The notes under the pieces were generated by a model. The model had not been told where the DNA came from. It did not search any database and saw nothing but the letters and a program-made list of their open reading frames with translations. The position numbers were made by a program, and so were the translations under genes. Shown one piece after another: positions 9,918-58,987 of a stretch of 64,000 nt of DNA. Every line of letters starts with the position of its first letter. Position 1 is the first letter of the stretch. Location: positions 1,408,001 to 1,472,000 of the forward strand of contig JBEPYO010000001.1 in assembly GCA_041641295.1 (NCBI GenBank), read 5' to 3'. This DNA comes from Nitrososphaerota archaeon. GTDB lineage: Archaea; Thermoproteota; Nitrososphaeria_A; Caldarchaeales; Calditenuaceae.

Positions 9918-10032
9918 GTCTTATTCAGCTATCCGCCATTCTTATTTAAGAATAATTAAGAATTTATGAGCTATAAATGGCTTGGTGTAGCTAAGCAATT
10001 TTTATAAAGGGTCCTCAGGCGAGATTCACAAC

Positions 10033-11943: not shown

Positions 11944-12017
11944 GGTGGGATCATACTGGGAACAGTTAGAAGGGTAGTCCGACGATGTATATGTCTCCAA
12001 GAGGATAAAAAGGCGAA

Positions 12018-12629
12018 TTGGCATACAATCTAGATTCTACTAAATTTTGGGCGATATATGGGCTATACCTCTTCAGCTCTATAGTGCTTTTCAGCTGGTA
12101 TGACTTCGTGGCGATATCCTCTCTGGGTAGAGTGTCGAGGGATACTGCTGGAAATATCGTCTTCATTCATGATGGCTCGCCAATTTATCCCTTCACAGTC
12201 GTCGCAGCCATCCTAGGTATCTTAGGCACTGCATACTATGTGTGGAGAGCGGTTGGTGGTGTTAAGGGTATGGTGTTGGGGCTTTTAGTAGGTAGAGCTG
12301 CAACTTTAGCAGTTTTCGAGATATACGAGTTTATGTTTACAGGGTTGGGCGAGACCTTTTACGGATGGGCGTCTTGGACCGCTATTTATTCGCAAACGAT
12401 TCCGTGGTTTCTGTTGAAGGCAAGCTATCTGGGCGTCCTAACACCTTGGACAAGGCGCAAAAACATCAGAATCGCTTCAACAATATTACTATGTTCGATA
12501 ATAGCGTTTCTCATATGGGTGATTTTAGGCTACAGGCTACCGGACTCAGGCGACCCCATATCATATGGCCTGAACGCGATTACAAGAATGTTATTCGCTA
12601 TGCTTCCAGTCGCGATTGTCAGGCGGTAA
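12018..12629 (+). CDS. Hypothetical multi-pass membrane protein
   Basis: 203 aa with about 6 hydrophobic segments, downstream of the GT2 gene; start uncertain. Confidence 0.6.
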   Translation: MAYNLDSTKFWAIYGLYLFSSIVLFSWYDFVAISSLGRVSRDTAGNIVFIHDGSPIYPFTVVAAILGILGTAYYVWRAVGGVKGMVLGLLVGRAATLAVFEIYEFMFTGLGETFYGWASWTAIYSQTIPWFLLKASYLGVLTPWTRRKNIRIASTILLCSIIAFLIWVILGYRLPDSGDPISYGLNAITRMLFAMLPVAIVRR

Positions 12630-13475
12630 ATGCGAAATTGTATTGTCCGAACTTTCAGTATAGAGCTCTCTGCTGACAGTTATCTTGTAGCTGATGTTTT
12701 TGCTTTCTTCTGGCATGAAGATATCCACCCCAGCCCAGTCAAGTCTAGGGGGTAAAACTTCCCGCCCAACGTAGACCTCATACCCCGGGGGCAGCTCCAC
12801 AGTTATCGCAGCGGGAAGGAAGCTAGAAATCAGTGTGACTCTGTTAGAATGGCACCTCGCCCAAGGCGGAGGAACTATCATCCTACCATGTATAACCATT
12901 CTGTCGAATATCCTACCGGAAAACTCATTCGCAACTATTATCCCACATGAACCCTCTACGCGGGTAAGACTTACAAGAATATAGTCGTCTAGGAATCGAT
13001 ATCTAACCTCCACAGACCCTATGCTATCTACCCTACGATAGCGTGTTTTAACAAGTTGTCCACGCAGAATCATTAAGAGTCTGAACAGCTTCGATAAGTT
13101 CGAGCCAGCTAGGTAGTGTGGCGCTAGGTAGTCGCGTAAAGTTCGATGAAGCATAGTCACGTCTAGGGGGCCAATGTATTTCTTTGATACACCGTTTAGT
13201 TGAAATAATCTTGAGAGCGTGTCTCCGGATGCATTGTCTGTGCAGTGGAGGGGAAAATATGTCACTCCCCCCTTCCTCGCAACGAGCCCTCCTATTCCAA
13301 CCCCCTCGCCCACCAGATCGAGGCTCCCTAGCCTCAGTCCTAGGCCCCGCCAAATCCCTGAAATCTCCATTTCATCTCCACCTCTTGGAAGCATGTAAGC
13401 GTAGATATTGCCGCCAAGATGAATCGACCGCTCCCCCATCATCATTTTCTGTGGCATAATTGAGTAATAATTCAA
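12591..13475 (-). CDS. Hypothetical protein (beta-rich), divergent from the radical SAM gene
   Basis: 294-aa ORF filling the interval; true start probably one of the ATGs near 13440. Confidence 0.6.
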   Translation of the reverse strand: MNYYSIMPQKMMMGERSIHLGGNIYAYMLPRGGDEMEISGIWRGLGLRLGSLDLVGEGVGIGGLVARKGGVTYFPLHCTDNASGDTLSRLFQLNGVSKKYIGPLDVTMLHRTLRDYLAPHYLAGSNLSKLFRLLMILRGQLVKTRYRRVDSIGSVEVRYRFLDDYILVSLTRVEGSCGIIVANEFSGRIFDRMVIHGRMIVPPPWARCHSNRVTLISSFLPAAITVELPPGYEVYVGREVLPPRLDWAGVDIFMPEESKNISYKITVSRELYTESSDNTISHLPPDNRDWKHSE

Positions 13476-13508
13476 GTATTATAAGCTAATTGCGATCCCA
13501 GCGTATCA

Positions 13509-14876
13509 ATGGGAGTAGATCTGCTACTTATCTTTCCATATTTTTACGATGGCCGGTCTAGGCACTGGCAGTTTCCCCCTCTTGGTATAGGCTATATCGC
13601 GGCTTATGCCAAAACGCTTGGCTACAGGGTGGAGATTCTAGACTGCACTTTTCTGTCTCAGGATGAGGCGGTGAGGAGGATAGAATCCGCCAAGCCTAGG
13701 GTGGCGGGGATCTATAGCATGCTTTCAATGGTAAATCAGGCTAAGCAGCTTGCCAAAGTGTGTAGAGAGTCCGCCGAAGTTGTTATCGCAGGCGGTCCCA
13801 TGCCCTCAGCATACCCCGAGATTTTTCTCGACGATTTTGACATAGTTGTCCAAGGTGAAGGAGAGTTAAGTGTCTCTGAGATCTTGGAGAAGCTTGATGG
13901 GAGAGGCGAATCCAACCTAGGAAATGTGAAGGGGCTGTGGTTAAATGGTAGATTCAACGGGGGCAAAAAGTCGTTTACAGGTCCGAGACAGTTGATCAAC
14001 AACCTAGATATCCTTCCATTCCCCGCGCGTGAACTCTATGACAATGAAAAATACAAAGCCCACTATAGGAGAAACTACAAATACACAATGACGTCAATGA
14101 TCGCAAGTAGGGGCTGCCCCTTCAGCTGCGACTTTTGCTGGAGGCCGGATTACGGCAGGGTGTATAGACATAGGTCTCCAGCGAATATAGCCGAGGAGAT
14201 GGAAGAGATACGATACAAGTGGAGATACGATAGAATATGGTTTGCTGATGAGATCTTCATAGTAGATAAAAAACATGTCATGCGTTTATGTGATGAGATA
14301 GTTGGACGCGGAATCGACATTGAATGGGAGTGCCTCTCTAGAGTAGACCTATTCGATTCTGAGTTAGCTAGGAAGTTGAGAAAGGCTGGGTGCTATAAGG
14401 TAATATTCGGTTTAGAATCAGGTGACGATTACGTTCTCAACAAATTGATGAATAAGAGGATTAAGGTTTCACAGTCGGTGTCTGCAGTTAAAGCTGCGAA
14501 GGGTGCGGGAATTAAAGTGGGGGCTTTCTTCATACTGGGTTATCCAGGAGAAAACAATGAAACTATGTTAAAAACAATAAAGCTTGCCTCGTCTCTACCA
14601 CTCGACTATTTCAGCATGACTATACCATATCCTCTCCCCGGAACAGGTCTATATGACAGGGTCAAGGATAAGATGGATACATTCGAGTGGGAGAAACCCA
14701 TTCATGGTTGGGATCACAAGCTACTGTTTAAACACGAGTTTTCACTTATGAAGCTCAAGTACGGTATATGGAAGGCGCGATTTCACTGGAGGATGCGGAG
14801 GAAACTAGGCCCACTATACTGGCTATTCAAGCCTTACGAGTTCTATACAGATTGGAGGTTTAAGTCGATGAAATAA
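13509..14876 (+). CDS. B12-binding radical SAM protein (BchE/class B-like)
   Basis: PPLGIGYIAA and GGPMPS B12 domain; SRGCPFSCDFC (CxxxCxxC); FGLESG; GYPGE. Confidence 0.92.
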   Translation: MGVDLLLIFPYFYDGRSRHWQFPPLGIGYIAAYAKTLGYRVEILDCTFLSQDEAVRRIESAKPRVAGIYSMLSMVNQAKQLAKVCRESAEVVIAGGPMPSAYPEIFLDDFDIVVQGEGELSVSEILEKLDGRGESNLGNVKGLWLNGRFNGGKKSFTGPRQLINNLDILPFPARELYDNEKYKAHYRRNYKYTMTSMIASRGCPFSCDFCWRPDYGRVYRHRSPANIAEEMEEIRYKWRYDRIWFADEIFIVDKKHVMRLCDEIVGRGIDIEWECLSRVDLFDSELARKLRKAGCYKVIFGLESGDDYVLNKLMNKRIKVSQSVSAVKAAKGAGIKVGAFFILGYPGENNETMLKTIKLASSLPLDYFSMTIPYPLPGTGLYDRVKDKMDTFEWEKPIHGWDHKLLFKHEFSLMKLKYGIWKARFHWRMRRKLGPLYWLFKPYEFYTDWRFKSMK

Positions 14877-15564
14877 CTAGTTTATTCCCAAGCCTAGCAT
14901 ATTCTAGAGAGGCCGCTATGAGAGCTATGTTCTGTGGAAGAGCCAGTGGGTAGCTCGCAACTACTGCGAAAAGGGTGAGTAACACTGCTGAGGTTATCCC
15001 TGTAATCCTATTCAGCTTCCCGGAGATAATCATCACGGCCAAACCTAACTCGACAGCGAAGATGAGAAAAACAGTGGTGTCTAGTCCAAAGAGGGAAGAG
15101 AAGACGAGGGCTGGAATATTCCCAGAAATGTATTGCTTAAAGTGTGCTGGATTTCTGTAGGCATCCAGGCCCCACTCTAGAAACGGGTAGGCTATACCAC
15201 CCCTAAAAAGTAGTCCCATCATCCCAGCGAGCCACGATTTTTCCCATGAGAGGCGGGACACTCTCTGAATAGATACGAGTGTGACAAATGCTGCCAGAGC
15301 CGCTATCCCAACCGTCTGGGGCTCTGCTATGGGTTCAAACGGCTTCACCATATAGGCATAGTAAGTTGTAGTAGCACACATTGCTAGTCCCGCCCAACGC
15401 GTTGCCCCAGGGGGATAAAGGAGTGCTATGCCTATGGACAAGTGTATGACAAGCATTATGACTGGATGTGGGAGTGTAGGGTTGGCAGTCAGGCGCGGAT
15501 CGAGGAGAAACGCAAGCCCCCACAACAGACTAGTAGCTGAAAGACCTAGGACTGTTAGCCTCAA
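14860..15564 (-). CDS. Membrane protein with a DoxX-like C-terminal half
   Basis: Many TM segments; FRGGIAYPFLEWG and ELGLA.MIISG..R pattern. Confidence 0.55.
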   Translation of the reverse strand: MRLTVLGLSATSLLWGLAFLLDPRLTANPTLPHPVIMLVIHLSIGIALLYPPGATRWAGLAMCATTTYYAYMVKPFEPIAEPQTVGIAALAAFVTLVSIQRVSRLSWEKSWLAGMMGLLFRGGIAYPFLEWGLDAYRNPAHFKQYISGNIPALVFSSLFGLDTTVFLIFAVELGLAVMIISGKLNRITGITSAVLLTLFAVVASYPLALPQNIALIAASLEYARLGNKLVISST

Positions 15565-16723
15565 CCCGCATTACACCGTATACTTCACGGATATAATAAA
15601 AGTAAAAAGCAGTAGACGCGGCAAAGCGAGCCAAGAGCCTGTACCCGTCGAATAACCAAGTGGCGTTATACAGGTCAACTGTAACATTGGGCCACACTGG
15701 ATATAGGAGCTGGGGAATAGAGAAGTTGAGTATGGAGTATGCCAAAAGTGTAAGCCATAACACTCGACCTGCAGGCTTCCCGGTGGCTAGGTGTAGCATA
15801 ACGAATAGCATGATGATGTTTTGCTCAGAGACGTGAGGCCGGCCGAGTATGAAGAGGGACGAATATGCGAGGGAGAGGCTCCAGAGCCTGTCCTCATGTA
15901 GGGGTGCCTTGATTAAGAGGAGTATTGATGCGGCAGAAAAAACTATGAGCCAAACAATGCCTAATGGGATTGTATCGAGCCTATAGCCACCGTAACTCCA
16001 TCCATAGAAGTATTCTAAGATGTTGAGTGGAGACACTCCTCCGACCTGTCGCAGCCAGCTGGTAGCACCTCCCAGCGGCGTATCTAGACTCCATCCCATC
16101 AATAGGAAGGGGGCTAGGAAGATGGAGAGTGAGAGTAAAACGGTTAGCAACAGGTAGAGTATGCCTCTCTTAGGGCCGAGTGATGCCGCAACTACTGGTA
16201 CAAGCCCGAGGGCCAGCGGCTTTATGTTCAGCGAGATAGAGAAAAGGATCGCGGATATAGCAGGCCTTACCCTGCTGAATAGGGCTAAAAGAGCGATCAC
16301 TGTAGCCAGAGAGTCAGGCTTCCCCCATAAAACGCTAATGGCAACTATTAACGGATTTGTAAGATAGAAAAAGGGGTTTCCCAATCCTCTCTTCAGCAAG
16401 AGTAAGGAGAGAAAGACATTAGCCAATATTACCGGAACTTTCATGAAGATATTAAAAACGAATATGTCTCCGCCGGACGCGTAGTGGACCGCTCCGAGAA
16501 ATAGCGGCCATATAGGGGTCTCTCCTATCCCTTGCACATGAGATGGATATGATGGATTGTGGAAAATTCCACCATCATAAGGGCTTTTCCCCTCAGCCAC
16601 GTTTTTGCCGGCCACGTACGCGACTAAAAGGTCATAGCCATGAGATGTGAAGGGAAAGGCTAAAACCTGTAATATTAGCGCCGCAAACAATGTGACGCGA
16701 TTGTCAGCGGTTATTCGCCGCAT
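15530..16723 (-). CDS. GT-C fold membrane glycosyltransferase (PIG-M/DUF2029-like)
   Basis: HGYD, G.SPY, K.P.ILA, NPL...S..WG..D and IKP motifs; about 10 TM segments. Confidence 0.72.
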   Translation of the reverse strand: MRRITADNRVTLFAALILQVLAFPFTSHGYDLLVAYVAGKNVAEGKSPYDGGIFHNPSYPSHVQGIGETPIWPLFLGAVHYASGGDIFVFNIFMKVPVILANVFLSLLLLKRGLGNPFFYLTNPLIVAISVLWGKPDSLATVIALLALFSRVRPAISAILFSISLNIKPLALGLVPVVAASLGPKRGILYLLLTVLLSLSIFLAPFLLMGWSLDTPLGGATSWLRQVGGVSPLNILEYFYGWSYGGYRLDTIPLGIVWLIVFSAASILLLIKAPLHEDRLWSLSLAYSSLFILGRPHVSEQNIIMLFVMLHLATGKPAGRVLWLTLLAYSILNFSIPQLLYPVWPNVTVDLYNATWLFDGYRLLARFAASTAFYFYYIREVYGVMRVEANSPRSFSY

Positions 16724-16895
16724 GTAAACCAGCTGTACAACACTTCTATCTCAAAAATAATACTTTAATACAATGACACCTATGTGGAGATACTTCAGCC
16801 CTATTATAGCTCGTCAGTATTCCCGCAGTGCCAAGTTCGATGGGGGGTTCGAAGGTTGGAATTGTGTTGAACAGCAATTCTTATAGCCTATTCAT

Positions 16896-17363
16896 ATGCG
16901 TGTTCTTGTAAGCTTGAGGCGCTTGGAGGTTATTGTTCTAACATTTTTGCTCATCTCTGCTATACTTGGTGGACTTATACTTGCCTTTGACGGGCTGTTA
17001 TGGCTGGATAACCCGAAAACAGGGCATGCATATGGCTTAATAGGGTTTGTCGTTCTTGATGTAGTTTTTATTGCTTCTATAGCTTTGCTGCCTAGGAGGC
17101 AGCGCTTATACCTAGCCTTATCTATCTGGGGGGCCCTCAAAATAATATTTCTAATCCTGAACCCGCTGACGGGGCCACAAATCGGCATAACCCCTTCAGA
17201 GTTTGCCGCGTACCTTTTCGGCCTAACCCCCATCACTGGCCCAAGTTGCCCCTTCGAATGCCCGCCATTCAGATTCACATATCTACTTCTTCTACTGGTC
17301 CATATCCCAATAGTATACAGCTCTGTAAGGCTCAGAAAAACAGCAACACCTAGAGAGGAGTAA
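16896..17363 (+). CDS. Hypothetical 4-TM membrane protein
   Basis: 155 aa with four hydrophobic segments and a CPFEC loop. Confidence 0.6.
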   Translation: MRVLVSLRRLEVIVLTFLLISAILGGLILAFDGLLWLDNPKTGHAYGLIGFVVLDVVFIASIALLPRRQRLYLALSIWGALKIIFLILNPLTGPQIGITPSEFAAYLFGLTPITGPSCPFECPPFRFTYLLLLLVHIPIVYSSVRLRKTATPREE

Positions 17364-17462
17364 ACAGTTAATATTGACCTGCGATCCCCCTCGCCCAGAG
17401 AAGGCTAATCTAAGTGCGACAAACTTATGAGTGGCTTGATTCTGTAGGAGAAAAGTGGGGCT

Positions 17463-17537
17463 GCGGCCGTGGTCTAGCCTGGACTAGGACGTGGGCTTTC
17501 CGAGCCCAATACCCGGGTTCAAATCCCGGCGGCCGCA
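17463..17537 (+). tRNA. tRNA-Gly(TCC)
   Basis: GCGGCCG/CGGCCGC acceptor stem, TGGGC-TT-TCC-GA-GCCCA anticodon arm, GGTTCAAATCC. Confidence 0.95.
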
Positions 17538-18331
17538 CTTCCTGTCCTTCTCTTCGCGACGAACATGCATAACTCTGACCCACTTGCTACACATTCAACT
17601 TCAATGACATCCCATTCTCCACCAGTTATCTCTGATATGTAGCCTGCCAAGAATCCACGTATGAGCTGCGATGCTGGTTCAAATATTCTTTCTTTGAGTA
17701 ATTGGCATTCGATGAGTTCTTTAACCTTGATTTTGTAAGTACCTTCGTCTGTTTGCTCAATATCAATGTGGCCGCACCAGCCGAGAGAGATGAGTGGTAT
17801 GATCTCGATAGGCTCTGTCTTTCCCATCTCTACGAAGATTTTTTTAATGTATCGAGCATCTGAAGCTCCCATTGGTTGGCCTAGATGGTATAGGAGAGCC
17901 TCTGCTGAGGATTTACCAAGCTTTGCATATATGTCGTGTAGTAGTCCCCTGAGCTCGCTGTCAGTTAATATAACAGCCCTAAGGTCGTATACTCCTAGCT
18001 GGTCATAGAATGGCGCGATTGATGTATGTGGCGGATATTGCTTATGCATTCTGATCCTCTTCACACCCTTCTTCTTCGCAATCAGTTTTATGAAGAAGTT
18101 TAGCTGATCCTCAGTGTATCCATTTACATCGATGAATATTAGCACATGTAACGTTTGGTCAATATTCATCGCTATGTTAGAGACAATTCCGAGGACTTTT
18201 AGATCTGCCGCGGAGATTACATTAAGTGCTGAAGTAAGTGCGCCTGGTGTATTCTTAAGCTCAAGGAAGAGGCTCCTTAACTCCGTATCGGGAATCGATG
18301 CGATGAAAGGTAAAACGAACCTACGTACCAT
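17519..18331 (-). CDS. ACT + V4R domain protein (small-ligand-binding regulator)
   Basis: N-terminal L.N.PGAL..AL ACT pattern; C-terminal RGFLAG...EVECVASGSELCMF V4R motif. Confidence 0.85.
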   Translation of the reverse strand: MVRRFVLPFIASIPDTELRSLFLELKNTPGALTSALNVISAADLKVLGIVSNIAMNIDQTLHVLIFIDVNGYTEDQLNFFIKLIAKKKGVKRIRMHKQYPPHTSIAPFYDQLGVYDLRAVILTDSELRGLLHDIYAKLGKSSAEALLYHLGQPMGASDARYIKKIFVEMGKTEPIEIIPLISLGWCGHIDIEQTDEGTYKIKVKELIECQLLKERIFEPASQLIRGFLAGYISEITGGEWDVIEVECVASGSELCMFVAKRRTGSAAAGI

Positions 18332-18661
18332 GTGTATATATACTCAATGGATCTATTAAGTATTGATCAACACTTAGACTGTATTTAAATGAAAGTAAGT
18401 TTTGATTAATTTGGCACGGTGATAGTGCTGTCAGCTCCTTCGATAGGAATATCGTCCACCTTAGCTGACAGGCTAGCAGAGGATAGACAGGAAGACTGGT
18501 CTTGTAGAGAACATGAAGATAAAGGAGGCTGCGGGAACAGTTCTTCACCATATATACCTCGGTGCTCTAAATAAGACTGTCTGGGGGAAGTTTACGTATT
18601 TTTTAAAGCTTATAAGCGCCGATCAGAAGCAATGAGGTGTAAAGATGTTGGTGGATGATTT

Positions 18662-18994
18662 TTGAGTAAGAGATACTTCAGGAGGGATGAGATTGTAGGT
18701 AAAGACATTATATCGGATTCCGCCGTAAGGCTTGGAAAAGTTAAGGACATTGGTTATGATCCGGAGGGGAAAATCGTTCTGATATATGATAAGACGGGTG
18801 AAGGGGGTGAAGAGGCAATACCCTCATCCCAAATAATAGCTATGGGGGATGTGATTCTCGTCAAGTCAGCCACATTAGAAAAGATTCCAACTCCAGCCAG
18901 CTCACCGTCATTGAAGATTTGCCCCAAATGTGGAAAGGAGAATGCGCCAGACATGCTATACTGTACTAGTTGCGGCTCGAGGCTGGGAGGGTGA
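18662..18994 (+). CDS. PRC-barrel protein with a C-terminal zinc ribbon
   Basis: IVGK.I......LGKVKDI..D and IP...I.A.GDVILVK PRC pattern; CPKC-x10-CTSCG. Confidence 0.85.
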   Translation: MSKRYFRRDEIVGKDIISDSAVRLGKVKDIGYDPEGKIVLIYDKTGEGGEEAIPSSQIIAMGDVILVKSATLEKIPTPASSPSLKICPKCGKENAPDMLYCTSCGSRLGG

Positions 18995-18998
18995 GGGT

Positions 18999-19757
18999 AT
19001 GAGAATTGAGGAAAATTTAGGGGATGCATACAACTACACTGTCAAGCTATTCAAAGATATTGGAAGACTCGTAATCCTCATAGTCTTGAACATAATACCG
19101 ATAGTGAACTTCATTGTGATTGGATACTTCGCAAGGGTAATCAGAGAGTCGCCGAGAAGTGAAGCCCCACCGCCTCTCGAGAAGTATGGTGACCTCTGGA
19201 TTGAGGGTGCAAAAATTTTCGTCGTCTCACTGGTCTACATGATAGTACCTATTGTCTTGGTCTCTGTGGGTGCAGCTTCGGCGATAGTTGCTGGTGCGCT
19301 TTTTCCTTTCGGAGGCCTCGGAATCGTTGGTAGTGCACTAGTAGTGTTAGGGTTGGTTCTGATATTCTTAATAATGATAATAGCGTTGATGGCGATTGTA
19401 AATATGGTCAAGAGGGGGAGGCTGGGTGCAGCATTTGATTTCGATCAAATATTATCAAAAATTAGGGCAGTTGGTTGGGCAAGATACATTCTTTGGATAG
19501 TCGTAATATTCGTGATAGGGCTGGTGCTTGCTGGTCTTTCTGCTATCCCATTCATCGGCTGGCTCATATCCCTCGTAATTTCGCCCGTCTTCTTGGTCTT
19601 CATAGGTAGGTCAGCTGCAAACATATACGAGTCAGCCACAACCGCTACTCCAGCTCCAGCTGGAGTTACTCCCGTGGGCCTTTTCTGTGGCTACTGCGGA
19701 AACCCGCTTCAGCCCGGCGACAAGTTCTGCGGCAAGTGTGGAAGGCCGGTAAAATAG
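18999..19757 (+). CDS. DUF4013-like membrane protein with a C-terminal zinc ribbon
   Basis: IIPIVNF..GY..RVIR, P....G.L...G.K and AAFDF; CGYC-x10-CGKCG; ATG 18999 follows the PRC gene. Confidence 0.8.
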   Translation: MRIEENLGDAYNYTVKLFKDIGRLVILIVLNIIPIVNFIVIGYFARVIRESPRSEAPPPLEKYGDLWIEGAKIFVVSLVYMIVPIVLVSVGAASAIVAGALFPFGGLGIVGSALVVLGLVLIFLIMIIALMAIVNMVKRGRLGAAFDFDQILSKIRAVGWARYILWIVVIFVIGLVLAGLSAIPFIGWLISLVISPVFLVFIGRSAANIYESATTATPAPAGVTPVGLFCGYCGNPLQPGDKFCGKCGRPVK

Positions 19758-19964
19758 TCCGCGTACTGAAAGGATTTTTTCGATATACGTCGAGGCTGGT
19801 CAGCATATTGCCTGCGGCTAGGATGGTCTATGTCAGCGGCCCAATCCTTAAAAACCAAACAGGTCCCTCCATGACTGGCTAGGGCTGCCCCGTCTCTTCA
19901 AGGATTAATAGAGGCTTGTTACTTCCTTGTATTGCCGGCGGGTTGGGGTTTGGCTGGCCAGAAT

Positions 19965-20038
19965 GCCGGCGTAGCTCAGCCTGGTAGAGCGCGGGACTCA
20001 TAATCCCGTCGCCGTGGGTTCGAATCCCACCGCCGGCA
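19965..20038 (+). tRNA. tRNA-Met(CAT), probably elongator
   Basis: GCCGGCG acceptor stem, CGGGA-CT-CAT-AA-TCCCG anticodon arm, GGTTCGAATCC; G1:C72 argues against initiator; Ile2 not formally excluded. Confidence 0.93.
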
Positions 20039-23958: not shown

Positions 23959-24555
23959 TCAGAAGAGGGTCTCGAGGAGGATGATAAGTCCTGCAGCGGC
24001 TAGTCCCGCTCCTATCATTTGGCCTGCGGTTTTTAGCACATTTATCCCTGCGGCCCGCCCCACTATCGCGCCCGCTGCCAGTAGTAGGGCTGCGGTTACT
24101 GCGAGGGATGATATCAATCCATACACCGCTTCACCTCCCAAGTAGGTTGTTATCATGTAGGGTAGTGAAACGGTAAGCAGTGCTGCTACTGGTGAGAGTG
24201 CATTTACTAGGGCGACAAGAATCACCGCGATAGAGCCCACCTTGGTGTGGAGGGTGTTTCTCAAGGCTGTGAGCGTCGCCAGCTCAAGCCTCCTTATCCT
24301 AGCCTCCTGCTCTGCCTTCTCCGAGATTAGAGCCCCAGTCCACCCCGAGATAACCATGGCAATAACTACTGCGACAACCGTCTGGGCGATAACCCTGAAA
24401 GGGTGGGGACCTGATAGGTGGAGGCCGAAGACAAGTCCGACGCCCACCATTGCGCCGTCAAAGACCTGGAGAGAGAAATACCTTCTAGCAACACCGCGCG
24501 TCTCTGTGACAGCGAACACGGTCTTTAAACGATTGCGGAGCCAGCCGAAAACCAT
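23959..24555 (-). CDS. VIT1/CCC1-like membrane transporter
   Basis: RRYF....FDG and SG..GA..SE.AE patterns; about 5 TM; paired with the DUF211 gene. Confidence 0.7.
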   Translation of the reverse strand: MVFGWLRNRLKTVFAVTETRGVARRYFSLQVFDGAMVGVGLVFGLHLSGPHPFRVIAQTVVAVVIAMVISGWTGALISEKAEQEARIRRLELATLTALRNTLHTKVGSIAVILVALVNALSPVAALLTVSLPYMITTYLGGEAVYGLISSLAVTAALLLAAGAIVGRAAGINVLKTAGQMIGAGLAAAGLIILLETLF

Positions 24556-24564
24556 CGTAGGCCA

Positions 24565-24852
24565 CTACCTCTTCCGCTCTACCTTCTCCACGACAGTTGC
24601 GTCGACGCTGTGTATGGCTCCTCCCAAGGCCTTAATCGCCTCGCCTATCACTTCTACATCAAGGTCATTACCGTCGATGATCAGCTTGACTGTCTCGGTC
24701 TCCGCATCCATCTCGAGGACAGAGGAATCCACTCTCTTTACCCCTTTGACCCCTGCTAACCTCTTACTGAACTCGACAATATCCGGCTGGTGGGGTTTCA
24801 AGACGTCCAATACCAGCCTAGTGATCAGGACACTCTCACGGGCCTCCGACAT
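24565..24852 (-). CDS. DUF211 family protein
   Basis: RLVLDVLKPHQP and GGAIHSVD motifs. Confidence 0.88.
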   Translation of the reverse strand: MSEARESVLITRLVLDVLKPHQPDIVEFSKRLAGVKGVKRVDSSVLEMDAETETVKLIIDGNDLDVEVIGEAIKALGGAIHSVDATVVEKVERKR

Positions 24853-25180: not shown

Positions 25181-26137
25181 ATGATTACGTTCAGGCAAGT
25201 TATTGAGGCCTCACAAATATTGGAGAAGTATCTTAAGCCCACTCCACTCGTCTATTCTAGGGGTCTCTCGAGGGAGTTGGGCTGTGATGTCTGGGTTAAG
25301 CTCGAGAACCTGAACCCCACACACTCCTTCAAGGTCAGGGGCGGGATTTACTACATGTACAAGATGTTTGAGGAGGTGAAGAGGACAGGTGTTATAACAG
25401 CCTCAATGGGGAATCATGCCCAGTCAATCGCTTATGCTGGAAGCCTATTTGGGGTTGACGTGCATGTAGTGGTGCCCAGCTGGGTATCTGACGTCAAGAA
25501 GGAGTCACTCCAACAGCTCGGCGCCCACGTCATAACATATGGCAACTTCTTCGACGAGGCTGCCCTCTATGCGGAGGCGCTAGCTAGGGAGAAGGGCTAC
25601 CGATACATCCACGCAATAAACGAGACGATGCTCTACCCGGGCGTGGCTACCATGCACCTGGAGGTACTGAGGGAGCTCCCGGGAGTGGATGTGGTTTTCA
25701 ACCCGATAGGAGGGGGCTCCGGCGCAATAGGCGCTTGCATAGTGTATAAGACGGTCGACCCCTCGATAAGGGTGATAGGTGTACAGGCCGAGGGCGCCCC
25801 GGCCTTCTACGAGTCTCTAAAGCAGGGGCGGATAGTCTCGAGGGACAAGGTGGAGACGAGGGCTGAGGGACTCGCTGTGGCCAAGGCATACGAGGTCCCC
25901 TTCTCAATCCTCCGTGGACGGATTGATGATGTCGTGCTTGTCTCGGATGGCGAGATGGAGAGGGCTATAAGGAAGCTCTACCGCCACGTCCGCCAGATAG
26001 CAGAGCACGCAGGCGCGGCAGCCACCGCCGCCGCATACAAGATGAGTAGCAACATAGCGGGCAAGAAAGTTGTATTGATGTTGACTGGTGGAAACATTGA
26101 CGAGGCCCAGATAGCTCGGATACTTTCAGAGAAGTAA
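25181..26137 (+). CDS. PLP-dependent threonine/serine dehydratase (no ACT domain)
   Basis: KLEN.NPTHSFKVRG, ASMGNHAQ, PIGGGSG and TGGN. Confidence 0.9.
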   Translation: MITFRQVIEASQILEKYLKPTPLVYSRGLSRELGCDVWVKLENLNPTHSFKVRGGIYYMYKMFEEVKRTGVITASMGNHAQSIAYAGSLFGVDVHVVVPSWVSDVKKESLQQLGAHVITYGNFFDEAALYAEALAREKGYRYIHAINETMLYPGVATMHLEVLRELPGVDVVFNPIGGGSGAIGACIVYKTVDPSIRVIGVQAEGAPAFYESLKQGRIVSRDKVETRAEGLAVAKAYEVPFSILRGRIDDVVLVSDGEMERAIRKLYRHVRQIAEHAGAAATAAAYKMSSNIAGKKVVLMLTGGNIDEAQIARILSEK

Positions 26138-26160
26138 TAGACGCATAGTCTTCAAGATAC

Positions 26161-27327
26161 TTAGGATGAGGAGACTATCCTGATTGCTAGTGGCTCAAAA
26201 AGCCGCGTCGTAGAGACGTAGATAATATCCCTGTCCTTCACACCAACTTTGGCTAGTACGTCCTCGTCATCTAGTCTCCTCCCAGCGTATAACACTTCAG
26301 GGTCAGGGAATCCGAAGACGGATGCCAGTGTCTCTTTAAGCTTCAAGACCGTCTCATTCAAGTCAAACGAGAACTCGAGGGGGGCTGAGTGGTTTTCACT
26401 ACATACTATACAGTTTGGGTCTCGTGAAATTTTGACGCGGGAGAGGCGAGAGTTGAGGGCGTCATAAACGATGAGGCCTGTTGGCGGCTTTCCGAGACGC
26501 CCTTGATGAAGTATCTGCATGCCAATGGTTGTCATGATTCCGGCTACCACCGAGGCCACAGACTGGACCGCAGGCATAGGTGGCATTAACCGCGAACGCA
26601 ACTCCTCTATCAGTTTTAATATCTGGTCATCAGCCAGCTCGGCTATCATGTCTAGCCTAGTGTACTTTATGTCGTAGATTGTCTTTATATTGAGTTGGAA
26701 GAGCTTCTCAGCCTCCTCCAGCCCCACCGTGATTCCGTGCTCCTTTAGATCGTTGACGAGGTGCTCAGGCCTCCTCCTCTTAAGCGTGCATTCTGCCAGC
26801 TTCTCCTCTCTTGGTATGAGGTTTATGCTCTGGCACTCCAGGCATGCCGTCTTTCTTGGGAAAACCACTTGCACGTTTCCGTAAAACCCGTTCATGGCGC
26901 CGTCCACTAAGGGTTTTTCAAGGCTGACTGCAACGGAGTTCAGCCATCTCCTCGATGCCCAGTTGTCTAGGCATGAGAAGATTATGTCTGTCCTGCCGAG
27001 CACCTCCTCTCCTAGCTCTCTAATGTCTTGGCCGTAGGCCTCGACTGATACGTGGGGGTTGATCTCGCGTAGCCTCTCGGCTGCAACAACAGCCTTTCCC
27101 TTGCCTATGTCTTGGTCCCTGAATAGGAGCTGGCGGCTCAGATTGCTTAGCTCGACGTAGTCGTAGTCGGCGAGTATCAACTTGCCTACACCCATCATCG
27201 CGAGGTTCTTCGCCACTTCACCGCCTATGGCTCCGACGCCAGCAATAAATACGGTTGAGGATAGGAGGATGTTCTGGTCCCACCCCTCTACGCGGAGCTG
27301 CCGGTCGTACCTCTCCATTCCGGTCAT
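26161..27327 (-). CDS. Ubiquitin-activating enzyme E1-like (ThiF domain, catalytic-Cys insert, C-terminal ubiquitin-fold domain)
   Basis: RYDRQ, GVGAIG, D.D.VELSNLSRQ, CLEC...CIVC Zn site, AECTL catalytic Cys, C-terminal ETV..LK...LYAGRRLDD Ub-like fold. Confidence 0.92.
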   Translation of the reverse strand: MTGMERYDRQLRVEGWDQNILLSSTVFIAGVGAIGGEVAKNLAMMGVGKLILADYDYVELSNLSRQLLFRDQDIGKGKAVVAAERLREINPHVSVEAYGQDIRELGEEVLGRTDIIFSCLDNWASRRWLNSVAVSLEKPLVDGAMNGFYGNVQVVFPRKTACLECQSINLIPREEKLAECTLKRRRPEHLVNDLKEHGITVGLEEAEKLFQLNIKTIYDIKYTRLDMIAELADDQILKLIEELRSRLMPPMPAVQSVASVVAGIMTTIGMQILHQGRLGKPPTGLIVYDALNSRLSRVKISRDPNCIVCSENHSAPLEFSFDLNETVLKLKETLASVFGFPDPEVLYAGRRLDDEDVLAKVGVKDRDIIYVSTTRLFEPLAIRIVSSS

Positions 27328-27827
27328 ATCCCGGCAAGCTTCTCTAGGGACCGCTCCTGGGTTGCGTAGAGCCTGATATACTCTCTAACACGGGCCACAA
27401 AACGCTCGGGATATAGCTTCAGTTCCTGGGCTGCCCAGACGTTGAGTGGGTCATCAGGGTTTGGATTGGCGAGTAGGTTCTTCAGAGCCTCAATAACCGA
27501 GACAATATGCATGTTGGGATACCAGTCCTTATTCAGTATTGATTCGCAGATTCTGGCCGGCTCCTCATCCGTGAAGTTCGGATGCCATATCCGGGTGTGC
27601 CAGACCACCTCGGGGGGAACAAATGGGAATGAGCGCGGCAGAATAATCTCCACCACGAAAACCCCCCCATCATACACTCCGGAACCGATAATTATTCCCT
27701 TATAGTGTGTCAGGTCGCCGCCTACGGCGTCGAAGTTGGGCTCATAGTTCCTGATGAGCTGGTATTCTTGGGCCAGCCGCCTGACCCACCTGCTCTCAGG
27801 CAGATACCCAACCTCCGACGCCTCCAA
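27324..27827 (-). CDS. Ubiquitin-conjugating enzyme E2-like
   Basis: RRL..E, G.YDGGVF, FPFVPP, WHPN...IC.SIL (HPN plus catalytic Cys), W.P, NPNPDDPLN. Confidence 0.95.
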   Translation of the reverse strand: MEASEVGYLPESRWVRRLAQEYQLIRNYEPNFDAVGGDLTHYKGIIIGSGVYDGGVFVVEIILPRSFPFVPPEVVWHTRIWHPNFTDEEPARICESILNKDWYPNMHIVSVIEALKNLLANPNPDDPLNVWAAQELKLYPERFVARVREYIRLYATQERSLEKLAGI

Positions 27828-27829
27828 AA

Positions 27830-28066
27830 CTACCCACCAACCGTCCTAGTAATCAAGACTAGCTTATCTCCCTCAGTAACTCCCGCGGACGATATTGTCT
27901 CAGAGTCGCTTAACGCCCTCCCCTTAAAAGTGAGCCTTGCATCCTCCGGCCTCAACTTCTTAATCGCGCAAACCCTCATCTTCACAGCACCGATGCTCGC
28001 GTTGGGCGGGACATCCAGTTCGATCGGTGGGCCACCACCCACCGCAGGAACTATTCTAATCTTCAT
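27830..28066 (-). CDS. Eukaryote-like ubiquitin (78 aa, ends in RTVGG)
   Basis: Beta-grasp pattern ARLTFKGRALSDSETI, C-terminal GG followed immediately by TAG; closely resembles Caldiarchaeum ubiquitin as recalled. Confidence 0.95.
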   Translation of the reverse strand: MKIRIVPAVGGGPPIELDVPPNASIGAVKMRVCAIKKLRPEDARLTFKGRALSDSETISSAGVTEGDKLVLITRTVGG

Positions 28067-28290
28067 ATTTCCCGCATCGCCTACTCCAGTTTATTGGATG
28101 GGCTATAAATAGATTAACTGTAGCGAGTGTGGTGTGCACATATACGTAACAAATACGCGCTCCGAAAAATGTGGTACAGCGTTGGGCTGCCCTTGAAGGG
28201 CTTTTAAAGGAATTGAGGCTTGTGGACCCAAGTGGAGGCCAGAGGGCTTGTAGGTAAGGGGTTTATAGGCAGGTAGTTACATGTTACGGG

Positions 28291-28908
28291 GTGAAAATGA
28301 GGGTTAGGCTGCTCCCGCCGGCGCTAGCTAAAATAATCAACCACGCCCTCTCCAACCCCAAGATCGAGGTGGCTGGTCTCCTTCTTGGGACTGAGGAGAA
28401 TGGGGTTGTAGAGGTGTGGGATGCTGTTACCGGCAGTCAGACCGGCTCCCCCGGCTTTGTCGTCCTAAGTGAGGAGGTGATGGCGAGGGTTGCGGAATTC
28501 CTTCACGATCACAAAATCCCCCTTTTTATCGTTGGGTGGTACCACTCCCACCCATCCCTAGGTCTATTCCTCTCCCCCATAGATATCAGGACACAGCTGA
28601 CATATCAGGCACTATACCAGAACGCAATAGCCCTAGTAATAGATCCCTCAAGATATGGAGGCTCTAAGAAGTTCTCGGATGGGCTATTCAAGGTCTTCAG
28701 AGTTGGGCCCAATAACCAAGTAATAGAGCTTCCAGTAACCTTCGGGGCTGGAACCCGTAAGATGCTAGAATCCACACTCATCAGCCTCACAACAACATCC
28801 ATCTTCCAATATGAAGAACATAACATGCCCGTCCCAAAACCCTTCAAAGTTATCAGTAACTTTCTATTACATGGCTTAAGGGCAGAGGGTGTTAGGAGGC
28901 ATGAGTGA
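28291..28908 (+). CDS. Rpn11-like JAMM/MPN+ metalloprotease (deubiquitinase)
   Basis: EVAGLLLG ... VGWYHSHP.LGLFLS.ID, an intact E-HSH-S-D JAMM motif, plus ALVIDP. Confidence 0.93.
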   Translation: MKMRVRLLPPALAKIINHALSNPKIEVAGLLLGTEENGVVEVWDAVTGSQTGSPGFVVLSEEVMARVAEFLHDHKIPLFIVGWYHSHPSLGLFLSPIDIRTQLTYQALYQNAIALVIDPSRYGGSKKFSDGLFKVFRVGPNNQVIELPVTFGAGTRKMLESTLISLTTTSIFQYEEHNMPVPKPFKVISNFLLHGLRAEGVRRHE

Positions 28909-29689
28909 TAAGAAGCGGATAGTTATCAAGAGGCGGCTAATACCTGAGCCTACCCAGCCAGAGCAGCAGGTAGGCGAACTCACAGGGGCACAGGAGGTTG
29001 AGAAGCAGGGTCCAGAGCCTCAGGAAATACAGGTACAGCCGACGGCCCAGCAGCCCACTGACAACTATGAGGAGGCAATTAAGAGTTTCGACAACATTCA
29101 AGCAAAGCTGAGAGAGATCCGGGAGATGGACCGCTCGATCCAGAGGGTTTTCAAGAAGTGGGATGAGGTTGACCTTCGCTCCGTGAAGAAGAAGCTCAAT
29201 CAACTCTCTGACGAGAGGAACGCCCTCTTGAGCGAGGCGCAGACCTGCGAGAATCTGCTTAACGAGGCTCTCGGCCTCTTAGAGTCGAGGATGAGTGAGC
29301 TGGAAGAGCAGCTTTTCGACAGGCTCGTAGAGGTTGAGTTCCTAAGGTCGCGGGAGAGCTCGCTGAGTGGGGCAGAGAGTGAGCGGCTAAAAGCACTGGA
29401 GGCCGAGGTTGAAGAGTATCGAAACAGGATTGCAGAGATTAAGAAGCAGATATCCGACCTCCAAGTGAAACTAGACAATATCAGGTCTCTGCCACGCACA
29501 ATAGTCAAGCTAACCACAAGCACAGAGGAGGCTGAGCCATTATACAAGGAGCTAGTGGCCAAATACAGGGACGAGGCCCGAGTAGCCTCCGCGATCGAGA
29601 AGATAATGCAGGACGAGGGTGTCTCGAGGCCCTACGCCATCATCCACCTCTGGAAGGCTGCACTAAAACCTCGGGTATCTGGGCAGTAA
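28901..29689 (+). CDS. Hypothetical long coiled-coil protein, translationally coupled to the JAMM gene
   Basis: ATG at 28901 overlaps the JAMM stop; Q/P/E-rich linker, heptad-rich region of about 150 aa, small helical C-terminal domain. Confidence 0.8.
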   Translation: MSDKKRIVIKRRLIPEPTQPEQQVGELTGAQEVEKQGPEPQEIQVQPTAQQPTDNYEEAIKSFDNIQAKLREIREMDRSIQRVFKKWDEVDLRSVKKKLNQLSDERNALLSEAQTCENLLNEALGLLESRMSELEEQLFDRLVEVEFLRSRESSLSGAESERLKALEAEVEEYRNRIAEIKKQISDLQVKLDNIRSLPRTIVKLTTSTEEAEPLYKELVAKYRDEARVASAIEKIMQDEGVSRPYAIIHLWKAALKPRVSGQ

Positions 29690-55000: not shown

Positions 55001-56032
55001 TCACGCGAGAGGTAGTGCAACGGGTCTACCTGTCTCCACTGACTTATGTGCCGCAAGAACTGCCTCTAAAGCCTTCCTCCCATCCACGCCGGTTACGGAA
55101 GGCTCTTTATCATGGATTATGCAATCGGCGAAGTGTTCGATCTCGTTTATGTATCCATCTCTAAACCTGTCTCTCCAGCTCTTGAAGCTCTCCGTTAGTA
55201 CGCGCATATCTTTTGTTACACGGGTCAGGGTTGTGCCTCTTATTTCTCCAACGGTAATTACTCCTTCAGTGCCCAAGATCTCAATCCTAGCATCATAACC
55301 ATAACCAACAGGGCATGCCCCATCAATGACCCCCAGACCATTGTTCCTAAACCTCGCTAAAACGACGGCCACATCATAAAAGTTAGGATACTTCTCCCTA
55401 AGGTCTGGACGTATGAGAGCTGAGACATCGCAGCAAATAGATGAATACTCATCACCCATAATCCATCTAAGTGTATCAAAATCATGGCTATTGACTTCTG
55501 CCAAGAATCCAATTCCCGTCTTTGGGTCCAGTGCCCAAGGAGGCGGCAAACCAGGTCCGCGACCCACCGACTTGACAAGGATAGGCCTCCCAATCTCTCC
55601 AGACTCTACTATTTTTTTAGCGGATGTAAACTCGGGGTCAAAACGCCTCATGAACCCAATCTGAAGCTTCACACCATATCGCTTGGTTACAGAGATCATT
55701 TTATCAGCCTCTTCAAGCGTCAAGGCCATGGGCTTCTCGCAGAAGACGTGCTTCCCAGCCTCAGCCGCCTCAATGGTTAGTGAGGTGTGAGTGAAAGTTG
55801 GTGTTGTTATCACTACAGCATCGAATTCGGACTTCCTCAGAGCTGTCGTGAGGTCTTTAAAGACTGCTAATCCGCCCAGCTCTTCCCCTAGCTTCGTCGC
55901 AGCGGCCAAATCACTGTCCACAATAGCTACGAGCTCTGCATTCTTTACCCTCGTCATAATGTTTCTCGCATGCACAGTGCCTGCCCTCCCAGCACCAATC
56001 ACGCAAAAGTTGACAATCTTTTGTGCAGGCAT
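55001..56032 (-). CDS. Gfo/Idh/MocA oxidoreductase (inositol 2-dehydrogenase-like)
   Basis: IGAGRAG..H, CEKP, GFMRRFD and SHDFD. Confidence 0.9.
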   Translation of the reverse strand: MPAQKIVNFCVIGAGRAGTVHARNIMTRVKNAELVAIVDSDLAAATKLGEELGGLAVFKDLTTALRKSEFDAVVITTPTFTHTSLTIEAAEAGKHVFCEKPMALTLEEADKMISVTKRYGVKLQIGFMRRFDPEFTSAKKIVESGEIGRPILVKSVGRGPGLPPPWALDPKTGIGFLAEVNSHDFDTLRWIMGDEYSSICCDVSALIRPDLREKYPNFYDVAVVLARFRNNGLGVIDGACPVGYGYDARIEILGTEGVITVGEIRGTTLTRVTKDMRVLTESFKSWRDRFRDGYINEIEHFADCIIHDKEPSVTGVDGRKALEAVLAAHKSVETGRPVALPLA

Positions 56033-56073
56033 TTCGGAGACCTAAAGGCTTATAGGACCTATTTACTTTTCCC

Positions 56074-57868: not shown

Positions 57869-58150
57869 CGAGGAAAAAATATGTAAGGAGATATTTAGAG
57901 ATAACCCGATATTCTGCGAGCATAGAGTAATGCGCGCGTTCATAAACCATTAGAGAATCATCCATTAATCTCCCACTGTCTACTGGCCAGTTAAAAAAAT
58001 TTCATGAACCCGTGAAATTATGTGATCCTAGGTGCCGGCCAAGTGTATTTAAAAGATTTTATGATATTGGAGACAAAAACAATCATATAAGATAGCAGCC
58101 ATATTCTGCGTGCGGAAAAATTTTTAAGTAGGCGAAAGTATTGCAGCTCT

Positions 58151-58918: not shown

Positions 58919-58987
58919 CAGGCGTAATACACCCGCTAATACCTTTAATAAGCCCATGCAATAACAATGGTTACGGGTCCCTGATTT

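Follow-up and report, generated by a model that had tools for sequence, protein, structure and literature searches.

RING E3 genes unlinked from a Caldiarchaeum-type ubiquitin operon in a family of Caldarchaeales

The ubiquitin operon and its neighbors

The window (i.e., the whole 64-kb stretch of DNA that was analyzed, C1:1408001-1472000) carries genes for ubiquitin (Ub; positions 27830 to 28066, minus strand, 78 aa), an E2 with a UBC fold (27324 to 27827, minus strand, 167 aa), and an E1 (26161 to 27327, minus strand, 388 aa), and, divergent from these, the gene for an Rpn11-like JAMM deubiquitinase (28291 to 28908, plus strand, 205 aa). The Ub stop lies 2 nt from the E2 start, the E2 and E1 genes overlap by 4 nt, and 224 nt separate the start of Ub from that of JAMM. 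All four open reading frames (ORFs) have clear Pfam matches, to PF00240 (ubiquitin; 4.7e-12), PF00179 (UQ_con; 1.4e-27), PF00899 (ThiF; 4.4e-61), and PF01398 (JAB; 1.2e-16), respectively, which bears out the original prediction of a tight Ub-E2-E1 operon divergent from an intact JAMM gene. The Ub frame ends in TRTVGG followed directly by the stop codon, without a propeptide.

The E2 carries the HPN motif (as WHPNF) and its catalytic Cys94 (within ARICES), and residues H82, P83, N84, and C94 were invariant in 12 of 12 aligned sequences. A single UQ_con match was obtained in the whole genome, which makes this protein the genome's sole E2; an E2 was found in all 41 relatives and in 75 of the 76 genomes of the class. 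Of the solved sequences, those of eukaryotic UBA1, UBA7, and UBA6 came closest to the E1 (1.4e-39). The Cys of its "AECT" motif, which we take to be the catalytic Cys, was matched in the alignment by the "PICTLKN" Cys of human UBA1 (Ala in one UBA1 crystal variant), and a second Pfam match (PF00240, 2.9e-7) over residues 318 to 372 marked a C-terminal ubiquitin-fold domain. The JAMM motif E...HSHPx7SPID was intact in the translation.

Among the relatives, genome G024 stands for the published species, "Candidatus Caldiarchaeum subterraneum," because its sequences match the published numbering: its 75-aa small RING protein has I30, W58, and R69 exactly as given for srfp in PMC5654768, and its Ub has 87 aa with Gly78, as in PMC6043591. 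Proteins of the window were 69% (Ub), 59% (E2), 46% (E1), and 52% (JAMM) identical to those of G024. Together with the small RING protein described below, these components constitute the known Caldiarchaeum-type, eukaryote-like archaeal ubiquitin system.

As originally noted, the E1 gene ends at position 26161, with a 23-nt gap to the stop of a convergent gene (26137). The latter encodes a PALP-family enzyme (25181 to 26137, plus strand; PF00291, 7.7e-78) and stands where sister families have the small RING gene. The E1-PALP junction was collinear in five independent assemblies of the same genus, with identities across it of 87% (L007), 85% (L005), 74% (L009), 70% (L010), and 65% (L008); a sixth (L011) aligned over the PALP end only. 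Beyond the PALP gene lie VIT-like and DUF211 genes (23959 to 24852, minus strand; PF02680, 1.6e-27; VIT1 below the cutoff). The same pair stands directly upstream of the small RING gene in G008 (L041) and G011 (L049), which belong to genus g2 of the same family, so the pair may mark a shared breakpoint.

On the other side, the JAMM stop is overlapped by 20 nt by a gene for a conserved coiled-coil protein of 266 aa (cc266; 28889 to 29689, plus strand), which adjoined JAMM in 7 of 8 JAMM-containing loci of relatives (L034, L035, L037, L044, L046, L050, and L051); no match at E values of ≤1e-3 was found in L036, and none followed JAMM in L047. A C-terminal block of cc266, I..I.Q.EG.P.(E/Q)YAII.LWK, is conserved (alignment A3). 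Pfam gave only subthreshold coiled-coil matches to cc266, which thus belongs to no known family there, and an Atlas structure search returned only generic coiled-coil look-alikes (best feature score of 0.75, below the meaningful level). Paralogy between cc266 and cc282, a protein encoded beside the RING genes, was undetectable (best E value of 0.026 over 26 residues).

RING genes and synteny across Caldarchaeales

Neither PF13639 (zf-RING_2) at E values of ≤10 nor a loose cross-brace regular expression applied to all frames of ≥30 aa detected a RING ORF in the window, as the original prediction had stated. Across the whole genome, PF13639 at the same E value returned two matches, both outside the window and both above the cutoff (37.7 and 36.2 bits versus 27.3 bits); zf-RING_2 was confirmed on both ORFs by Pfam (6.9e-9 and 3.3e-8). 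The two genes are on the same contig, 83 to 86 kb upstream of the operon. One (C1:1350674-1350880, minus strand) encodes a small RING protein of the srfp type (68 aa; PF13639 match of 36.2 bits at C1:1350695-1350826), and the other (C1:1348588-1349337, minus strand) encodes a multipass membrane protein of 249 aa with a C-terminal RING (TM-RING). The loose expression recovered both among five genome-wide matches in frames of ≥30 aa, none of them in the window. A strict RING-H2 expression had no match in the genome because both RINGs carry C-x2-C at ligands 3 and 4.

The ligand pattern of srfp is C4HC3-like (C-x2-C-x12-C-x2-C-x4-H-x2-C-x10-C-x2-C). Its eight predicted cross-brace zinc ligands (C20, C23, C36, C39, H44, C47, C58, and C61) are invariant, and these, together with G11 and W13 of the N-terminal segment, were common to 12 of 12 aligned small RINGs. 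The closest solved sequences were active RING-H2 E3s, with EL5 (3.5e-7) followed by RNF4, Arkadia, AMFR, and synoviolin. Within the genus, the dN/dS ratio of srfp was 0.04 to 0.21 in the five of seven pairs with finite dS; srfp is under strong purifying selection. A TATA-like element, TTTTATATAT, is located about 28 nt upstream of the TTG start of srfp and possibly represents a promoter of its own.

The srfp of this genome was 33% identical to the small RING of G024. In blastp searches against G024 and G038, it favored the TM-RING over the small RING by a slight margin, and in G019, G020, and G033, it matched the small RING better than the TM-RING. Such values leave orthology unproven by sequence alone; since a 45-residue RING is ambiguous in reciprocal BLAST, orthology rests on architecture and synteny. 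By these, the relocated small RING protein is the srfp orthologue, although it is not close by sequence. A RING-domain tree (43 columns, 40 rows), flagged for long branches meeting and, being unrooted, indifferent to which two groups are sisters, resolved three groups, with the small RINGs of this family not nested among TM-RINGs.

In the three sister families, the genes form a supercluster in which JAMM, followed by cc266, is divergent from Ub, E2, E1, srfp, and (cc126), beyond which lie cc282 in the opposite orientation and then TM-RING and GlyRS. By blastp, E1 was followed by the small RING, cc126/cc282, TM-RING, and GlyRS in G024, G020, G033, G019, G038, G025, and G031; the order expected from Caldiarchaeum, with a small RING gene after E1, is present in G024 and in the sister families. 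In the present genome (G000), G009, and G010, the block comprising the small RING, cc126, cc282, TM-RING, and GlyRS stands alone.

A synteny comparison across Caldarchaeales, which the original prediction had proposed, revealed the extent of this separation. Of the 19 genomes in the family of the window, none had a RING match closer than 10 kb to E2; in G000, G008, G009, and G011, the RING and E2 shared a contig but were 76 to 719 kb apart, and in the remaining genomes, they were on different contigs. Among the 22 genomes of the three sister families, 20 had the small RING gene on the strand of E2 and 1.3 to 3.3 kb past it. The contrast indicates that, throughout this family, a conserved supercluster is broken at the E1-srfp joint, with both halves kept. 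All 41 genomes of the order that were searched had a PF13639 match over the cutoff. Other break points were seen between E2 and E1 in G037, and G031 has a 2-kb insertion between these two genes. We infer that the joined arrangement came first and that the event was a split rather than a fusion; the direction is a matter of inference because the class-level outgroup search (76 genomes, E2 in 75) covered one order only, the single order that the class holds.

Family-wide differences and the modeled E2-srfp interface

Two smaller differences run through this family and separate it from its sisters. The first concerns the Ub terminus, where GG is directly followed by the stop codon in all 17 genomes of the family that have Ub beside E2, in contrast to a tail of 2 to 20 aa after GG in each of the 14 genomes compared from the other families. 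With GG at the end of the frame, a Ub precursor to be trimmed by Rpn11 is lacking here. In C. subterraneum, the Ub precursor was refractory to E1, and Ub cut at GG was active, according to PMC5654768.

The second difference lies in srfp. At the position of I30 (C. subterraneum numbering), 17 sequences of this family have Ala (12), Ser (4), or Val (1) and never Ile, and at that of W58, they have Leu (16) or Ile (1) and never Trp; the other families have Ile or Val at the former and Trp at the latter in 22 of 22 cases. In this genome, the two hydrophobic E2-contact positions are occupied by A22 and L51. The linchpin after the last Cys (R62 here) is Arg or Lys in all 17 genomes of the family and in all 22 others. 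The TM-RING has kept the Ile in 10 of 10 examined rows and the Trp in 9 (Tyr in G024). At the Ile position, a switch to Ala is a classic E2-binding-defective mutation, as in BRCA1 I26A. For C. subterraneum srfp, I30Q abolished ubiquitylation and W58A impaired it, as described in PMC5654768.

Loop 7 of E2 also differs by family: it reads Y/H-P/A-N in four sequences of this family versus S/R-P-S/G in six others, and it is predicted to sit at the srfp interface. A model of E2, srfp, and two zinc ions, built from our own 12-row alignments with zinc carried along, scored 0.75 versus 0.00 for the best of three controls, although a textbook E2-RING pair may pass by its likeness to solved complexes; among solved complexes, 58 of 80 attained the score mark used, and among mismatched pairs, 2 of 110 did. 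The runs agreed in at least 93% of contacts, with a partner pLDDT of at least 74. In the model, E2 residues 5 to 20, 66 to 70, and 103 to 105 would face srfp residues 21 to 25 and 44 to 62, which puts srfp at helix 1, loop 4, and loop 7, the canonical surface of E2, with A22, L51, and K60 in contact.

With its propeptide-free Ub and altered srfp contacts, the family offers natural variants against which two published findings, the gating by Rpn11 and the reliance on I30 and W58, could be tested.

Interpretation and comparison with known systems

The genes, their domains, their synteny, and the purifying selection on srfp are observations, and the explanation that we favor, with a probability of about 85%, is a complete Caldiarchaeum-type Ub system whose E3 genes were parted from the Ub-E2-E1 operon by genome rearrangement. 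Both RING proteins presumably serve this E2. Ub would be synthesized already mature, its GG end free, and then be adenylated by E1, bound to it as a thioester, and passed to the single E2; the two RING proteins would promote its transfer to substrate lysines, and the Rpn11-like JAMM protein would strip it from conjugates. Counting against this explanation are the low (33%) identity of the small RING to that of G024 and the lack, in the srfps of this family, of the two hydrophobic E2-contact residues found to be important in PMC5654768.

That lack is the starting point of an alternative that we regard as unlikely, in which the cascade is rewired: the srfp-E2 contact is weakened or changed, the membrane RING acts as the main E3, and Rpn11 processing no longer gates the activation of Ub. 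It is favored by the residue counts at the Ile and Trp positions (0 of 17 for each, versus Ile or Val in 22 of 22 and Trp in 22 of 22 elsewhere), their retention in the TM-RING (10 of 10 and 9 of 10), the I30Q and W58A effects and the E1-refractory precursor given in PMC5654768, the BRCA1 I26A precedent, the family-wide mature Ub end (17 of 17, versus tails in 14 of 14), and the family-specific loop 7 at the modeled interface. However, the complex model would keep srfp on the canonical E2 surface, the linchpin Arg or Lys is retained in 17 of 17 srfps of the family, and srfp is under strong purifying selection. Moreover, active RNF4 aligns with Ser at the Trp position, so that Trp is not obligatory, and all of the differences fall on one branch of the phylogeny; their co-occurrence is therefore a single event and not a correlation.

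A related and similarly doubtful reading is that the Ub system was re-regulated in this family, with E3 genes transcribed apart from the E1/E2 operon, a remodeled srfp-E2 interface, and Ub that, being born mature, is no longer gated by Rpn11 for activation. The interface changes may comprise I30 to A/S and W58 to L in srfp and S to Y/H and S to N in loop 7 of E2. They could amount to a compensated "bump-and-hole" swap, or the membrane-anchored RING could have taken over as the main E3. As for the supercluster's three conserved coiled-coil proteins, they could be undescribed adaptors of the system.

The original prediction had held that the E3 had moved, was of a non-RING type, or was dispensable, the last amounting to a minimal ubiquitylation variant. 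Conjugation of Ub by E1 and E2 alone, with the distant RINGs unrelated to the pathway, is improbable. The operon and window are indeed without an E3 gene, and PMC5654768 describes auto-ubiquitylation of E1 and E2 without E3. Nevertheless, substrate modification required srfp in C. subterraneum (same paper), both RING genes are retained with conserved neighbors, a PF13639 match is present throughout the order (41 of 41), and srfp is under purifying selection; the modeled E2-srfp contact, that of a textbook pair that may pass by likeness, points the same way. With two RINGs above the cutoff 83 to 86 kb upstream, the minimal variant is unsupported.

Still less probable is a non-RING E3 (HECT, U-box, RBR, or a type of unknown kind) replacing the RING at the locus. 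The three coiled-coil proteins, of no known family, would be the candidates, but no Cys-rich or catalytic motif was seen in them, and they are also present in families with an adjacent srfp. Genome-wide profile searches, of which the original prediction had called for those of RING, U-box, and HECT, yielded RINGs only, namely, the two matches above: HECT had no match at E values of ≤1, the best U-box and IBR matches (13.4 and 16.9 bits) were below their cutoffs (21.4 and 24.3 bits), and no Prok-RING_4 or C3HC4_3 match reached its cutoff. An assembly artefact deleting a RING gene at the 3' end of E1 (the original prediction had named an error at positions 26140 to 26160 as grounds for its refutation) can be dismissed, with nothing found in its favor, the same junction in five independent assemblies of the genus, and the unlinked state in every one of the family's 19 genomes.

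Relocation of the E3 genes, with two RINGs beside the same neighbors, is thus the one of the three proposals that holds. The original prediction had also specified that a close orthologue of the Caldiarchaeum small RING elsewhere in the genome would leave a rearrangement; the RING block was found elsewhere, so the finding reduces to one, although the orthologue is recognized by architecture and synteny and, at 33% identity, is not close. The cascade is probably complete, with gene order alone changed. For the origin of eukaryotic ubiquitylation, no prokaryotic model is better than the archaeal Ub-E1-E2-RING system, and finding it naturally without an E3 would have revealed a notable minimal state; this locus is not one. 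Since the E3 genes are present, conserved, and only unlinked, the value of the result is corrective: that a gene is missing from an operon or a 64-kb window does not show that the pathway lacks it. The five genes of the published cluster belong to a larger conserved supercluster of 10 to 11 genes, which can come apart at different joints with all of its parts retained.

The closest known system is that of C. subterraneum, in which rpn11l, ubl, e2l, e1l, and srfp (CSUB_C1473 to CSUB_C1477) are clustered next to a second E3, the operon being "adjacent to a second E3 protein" in the wording of PMC6043591. The two systems share the five core components, the order and orientation of JAMM and Ub-E2-E1, and two RING proteins (one small and one membrane anchored) with cc282 and GlyRS beside them. 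They differ in that srfp does not follow E1 here (the E3 block is about 83 kb away), Ub is without the nine-residue tail after GG, and srfp has A22 and L51 in place of I30 and W58 and is without the linker of 9 to 18 residues before the RING.

With eukaryotic RING-H2 E3s (EL5, RNF4, Arkadia, AMFR/gp78, and synoviolin/Hrd1), srfp shares the cross-brace spacing, eight Cys/His ligands, an Arg or Lys after the last Cys, and, in the model, a probable contact through helix 1, loop 4, and loop 7 of E2. Unlike them, it has C4HC3-like ligands, as PMC3082918 reports for CSUB_C1477. It is also very small, with no evident substrate-binding domain, and has Ala and Leu at the two canonical hydrophobic E2-contact positions.

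Gene order varies among Asgard archaeal ubiquitin clusters. These resemble the present system, by description rather than by sequence, in comprising Ub, E1, E2, and a small RING, often clustered (PMC5654768). Archaeal SAMP/UbaA/JAMM systems and bacterial E1-E2-JAB operons likewise combine a GG-ending beta-grasp modifier with a ThiF-type E1 and a JAMM protease; as described in PMC6043591 and PMC3082918, they have no UBC E2 of the eukaryotic type that is partnered by a RING. Here, in contrast, the E1 is nearest, among solved proteins, to eukaryotic UBA1, UBA7, and UBA6, and the E2 matches UQ_con in full.

The ubiquitin locus and two distant RING genes

Ubiquitin (Ub; 27830-28066, minus strand), E2 (27324-27827, minus), E1 (26161-27327, minus), and JAMM (28291-28908, plus) genes were found where the original prediction had placed them, each with Pfam support (ubiquitin, 4.7e-12; UQ_con, 1.4e-27; ThiF, 4.4e-61, plus a second ubiquitin-fold match at E1 residues 318-372; and JAB, 1.2e-16, respectively). 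The operon is tightly spaced, with a Ub-E2 gap of 2 nt and an E2/E1 overlap of 4 nt, and the stops of E1 and the convergent PALP-family gene lie 23 nt apart. The cysteine of the E1 "AECT" motif, which we take to be the catalytic one, aligned with that of "PICTLKN" in human UBA1. A search of the window's own genome (G000) revealed one E2 only, and its ubiquitin-family matches over the cut-off were limited to Ub and the E1 tail. G+C was 0.46-0.47 at window positions 10001-20000 and 56001-60000, compared with 0.51-0.58 in the rest of the window.

The reported lack of a RING gene in the window was upheld. A loose cross-brace pattern (all frames of at least 30 aa, whole genome) gave five matches, all outside the window, and PF13639 at E ≤ 10 gave two genome-wide, none within it. 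An assembly error at the E1 end, named in advance as a possible refutation, was ruled out: the E1-PALP junction is collinear in five independent same-genus assemblies (65-87% identity).

Three explanations had been offered for this locus: a relocated E3, a non-RING E3, or a cascade working without E3. Only relocation stands. The proposed whole-genome search with RING, U-box, and HECT profiles yielded two zf-RING_2 matches over the curated cut-off (G000:C1:1348609-1348734 and 1350695-1350826), ~83-86 kb upstream of the E1 stop (C1:1434161) on the same 1.55-Mb contig; with two RING genes in the genome, an E3-free cascade is not borne out. A non-RING E3 fared no better, as U-box, HECT, IBR, Prok-RING_4, and C3HC4_3 gave no genome match over their cut-offs. 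The pair comprises a 68-aa small RING finger protein (srfp) and a 249-aa membrane protein (TM-RING), which has a C-terminal RING and no fewer than three strongly hydrophobic segments; Pfam values for zf-RING_2 on the ORFs are 6.9e-9 and 3.3e-8. The closest solved relatives of the small RING are active RING-H2 ligases, namely EL5 (3.5e-7), then RNF4, Arkadia, AMFR, and synoviolin.

A TATA-like TTTTATATAT lies ~28 nt upstream of the srfp TTG start (locus L003 10880-10913, minus strand), in a 130-nt spacer common to srfp and a divergent L15e gene, and the srfp stop overlaps the cc126 ATG. Separately, a Cys-rich 129-aa open frame (G000:C1:1405441-1405647, plus strand), ~2.4 kb before the window start, carries a double zinc-ribbon and, after it, a C-x2-H...C-x2-C...C-x2-C stretch. 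This frame was rejected as a RING by these tests, its C3HC4_3 match being weak (11.3 bits, under the cut-off).

Gene order across Caldarchaeales

E2 was present in 41/41 genomes sampled from the order and in 75 of 76 from the class, which contains this one order only; all 41 also had a PF13639 match over the cut-off. The suggested synteny comparison divided the order by family. Of 22 genomes from the other three families, 20 have the small RING downstream of E2 on the same strand, at a distance of 1.3-3.3 kb (the exceptions being G037 and G039, the latter not assessable, with E2 on a 3.3-kb contig). In the window's family, 0/19 genomes have a RING at 10 kb or less from E2.

Comparison of G000 proteins with relatives' locus ORFs (blastp) gave a common layout: cc266<-JAMM, divergent from Ub->E2->E1->srfp->(cc126), then <-cc282 and TM-RING->GlyRS. 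It is joined in seven relatives (G024, which stands for published C. subterraneum, G020, G033, G019, G038, G025, and G031), and its right half (srfp, cc126, cc282, TM-RING, and GlyRS) is free-standing with internal order kept in G000, G009, and G010. G037 is broken between E2 and E1, with JAMM-Ub-E2 (L047) and E1-srfp-cc282-TM-RING-GlyRS (L048) on separate contigs; G031 has a ~2-kb transporter gene (two ORFs, L051 4152-6164) inserted at that joint; and in G008 the right half is split again. The cluster thus breaks at several joints while its parts are kept. Gene order thus points to a cluster break, not a gene loss.

In G009 (L039), E2-E1 occurs without Ub or JAMM alongside. In the window's genus, a VIT-like and DUF211 pair (window 23959-24852, minus strand) neighbours the operon on its E1 side, with PALP between; in a second genus, g2, the pair is directly upstream of srfp (G008, L041 4595-5484; G011, L049 4781-5880). 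This placement hints at a shared breakpoint or inversion history.

In all four families, the ubiquitin supercluster includes three coiled-coil proteins, cc266, cc126, and cc282, that fall into no known protein family. The cc266 gene (window 28889-29689, plus strand) overlaps the JAMM stop, and its product is conserved over a C-terminal block, I..I.Q.EG.P.(E/Q)YAII.LWK; cc282 and cc126 lie between the two RING genes (L003 9459-10307, plus strand, and 10304-10684, minus strand).

Orthology and modelled contacts of the small RING

The genes flanking the relocated small RING are those flanking srfp in relatives. All 12 aligned small RINGs have all eight ligands as well as G11 and W13, the last two lying in an N-terminal stretch that is absent from TM-RINGs. 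In an unrooted RING-domain tree (43 columns), the family's small RINGs formed a separate group outside the TM-RING group, and its TM-RINGs clustered together. Within the genus, srfp dN/dS was 0.04-0.21 (5/7 pairs with finite dS). Counting against orthology, G000 srfp is only 33% identical to that of G024, and by BLAST it is no closer to the small RING than to the TM-RING of G024 or G038.

A model of E2, srfp, and two Zn, given a textbook E2-RING pair, our own 12-row alignments, and carried-along zinc, scored 0.75, compared with 0.00 for the best of three controls; its mark is reached by 58/80 solved complexes and 2/110 mismatched pairs. At least 93% of contacts agreed between runs, with a partner pLDDT of at least 74. 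The modelled interface comprises E2 helix 1 (5-20), loop 4 (66-70), and loop 7 (103-105), and srfp 21-25 and 44-62, with A22, L51, K60, and R62 in contact. Its score speaks for a resemblance to E2-RING complexes already known rather than for binding.

Family-level variants and the published system

Ub ends in GG-stop in 17/17 genomes of the window's family with Ub beside E2; tails of 2-20 residues occur in 14/14 genomes of other families. According to passages of PMC5654768, the Ub precursor was refractory to E1 and GG-truncated Ub was active. By analogy, Ub activation in the window's family should therefore be independent of Rpn11. In C. subterraneum numbering, srfp (17 genomes of this family versus 22 of the others) carries A (12), S (4), or V (1) versus I (18) or V (4) at I30, L (16) or I (1) versus W (22) at W58, and K (15) or R (2) versus L, I, or Y (22) at L67; the linchpin R69 is R or K in all 17 and all 22. 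TM-RINGs keep the Ile in 10/10 rows and the Trp in 9/10. I30Q abolished and W58A impaired ubiquitylation (passages of PMC5654768). E2 loop 7 reads Y/H-P/A-N in four sequences of the family versus S/R-P-S/G in six others. The Ub, srfp, and loop 7 changes all fall on one branch and so count as a single event. As variants at the family level, the propeptide-free Ub and the changed contact residues of srfp are modest and testable.

In the main texts covered, we found no description of a split cluster, propeptide-free Ub, or the srfp substitutions in this order. The G024 small RING (75 aa) matches C. subterraneum srfp exactly in the numbering of I30, W58, and R69 (passages of PMC5654768), and the G024 Ub is as published (87 aa, Gly78 then nine residues; passages of PMC6043591). 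Homologues of Ub, E1, E2, E3, and Dub are recorded in six further Aigarchaeota bins (passages of PMC6053391), so the component set was already known. The G000 locus belongs to the known Caldiarchaeum-type ubiquitin system, its E3 block being unlinked.
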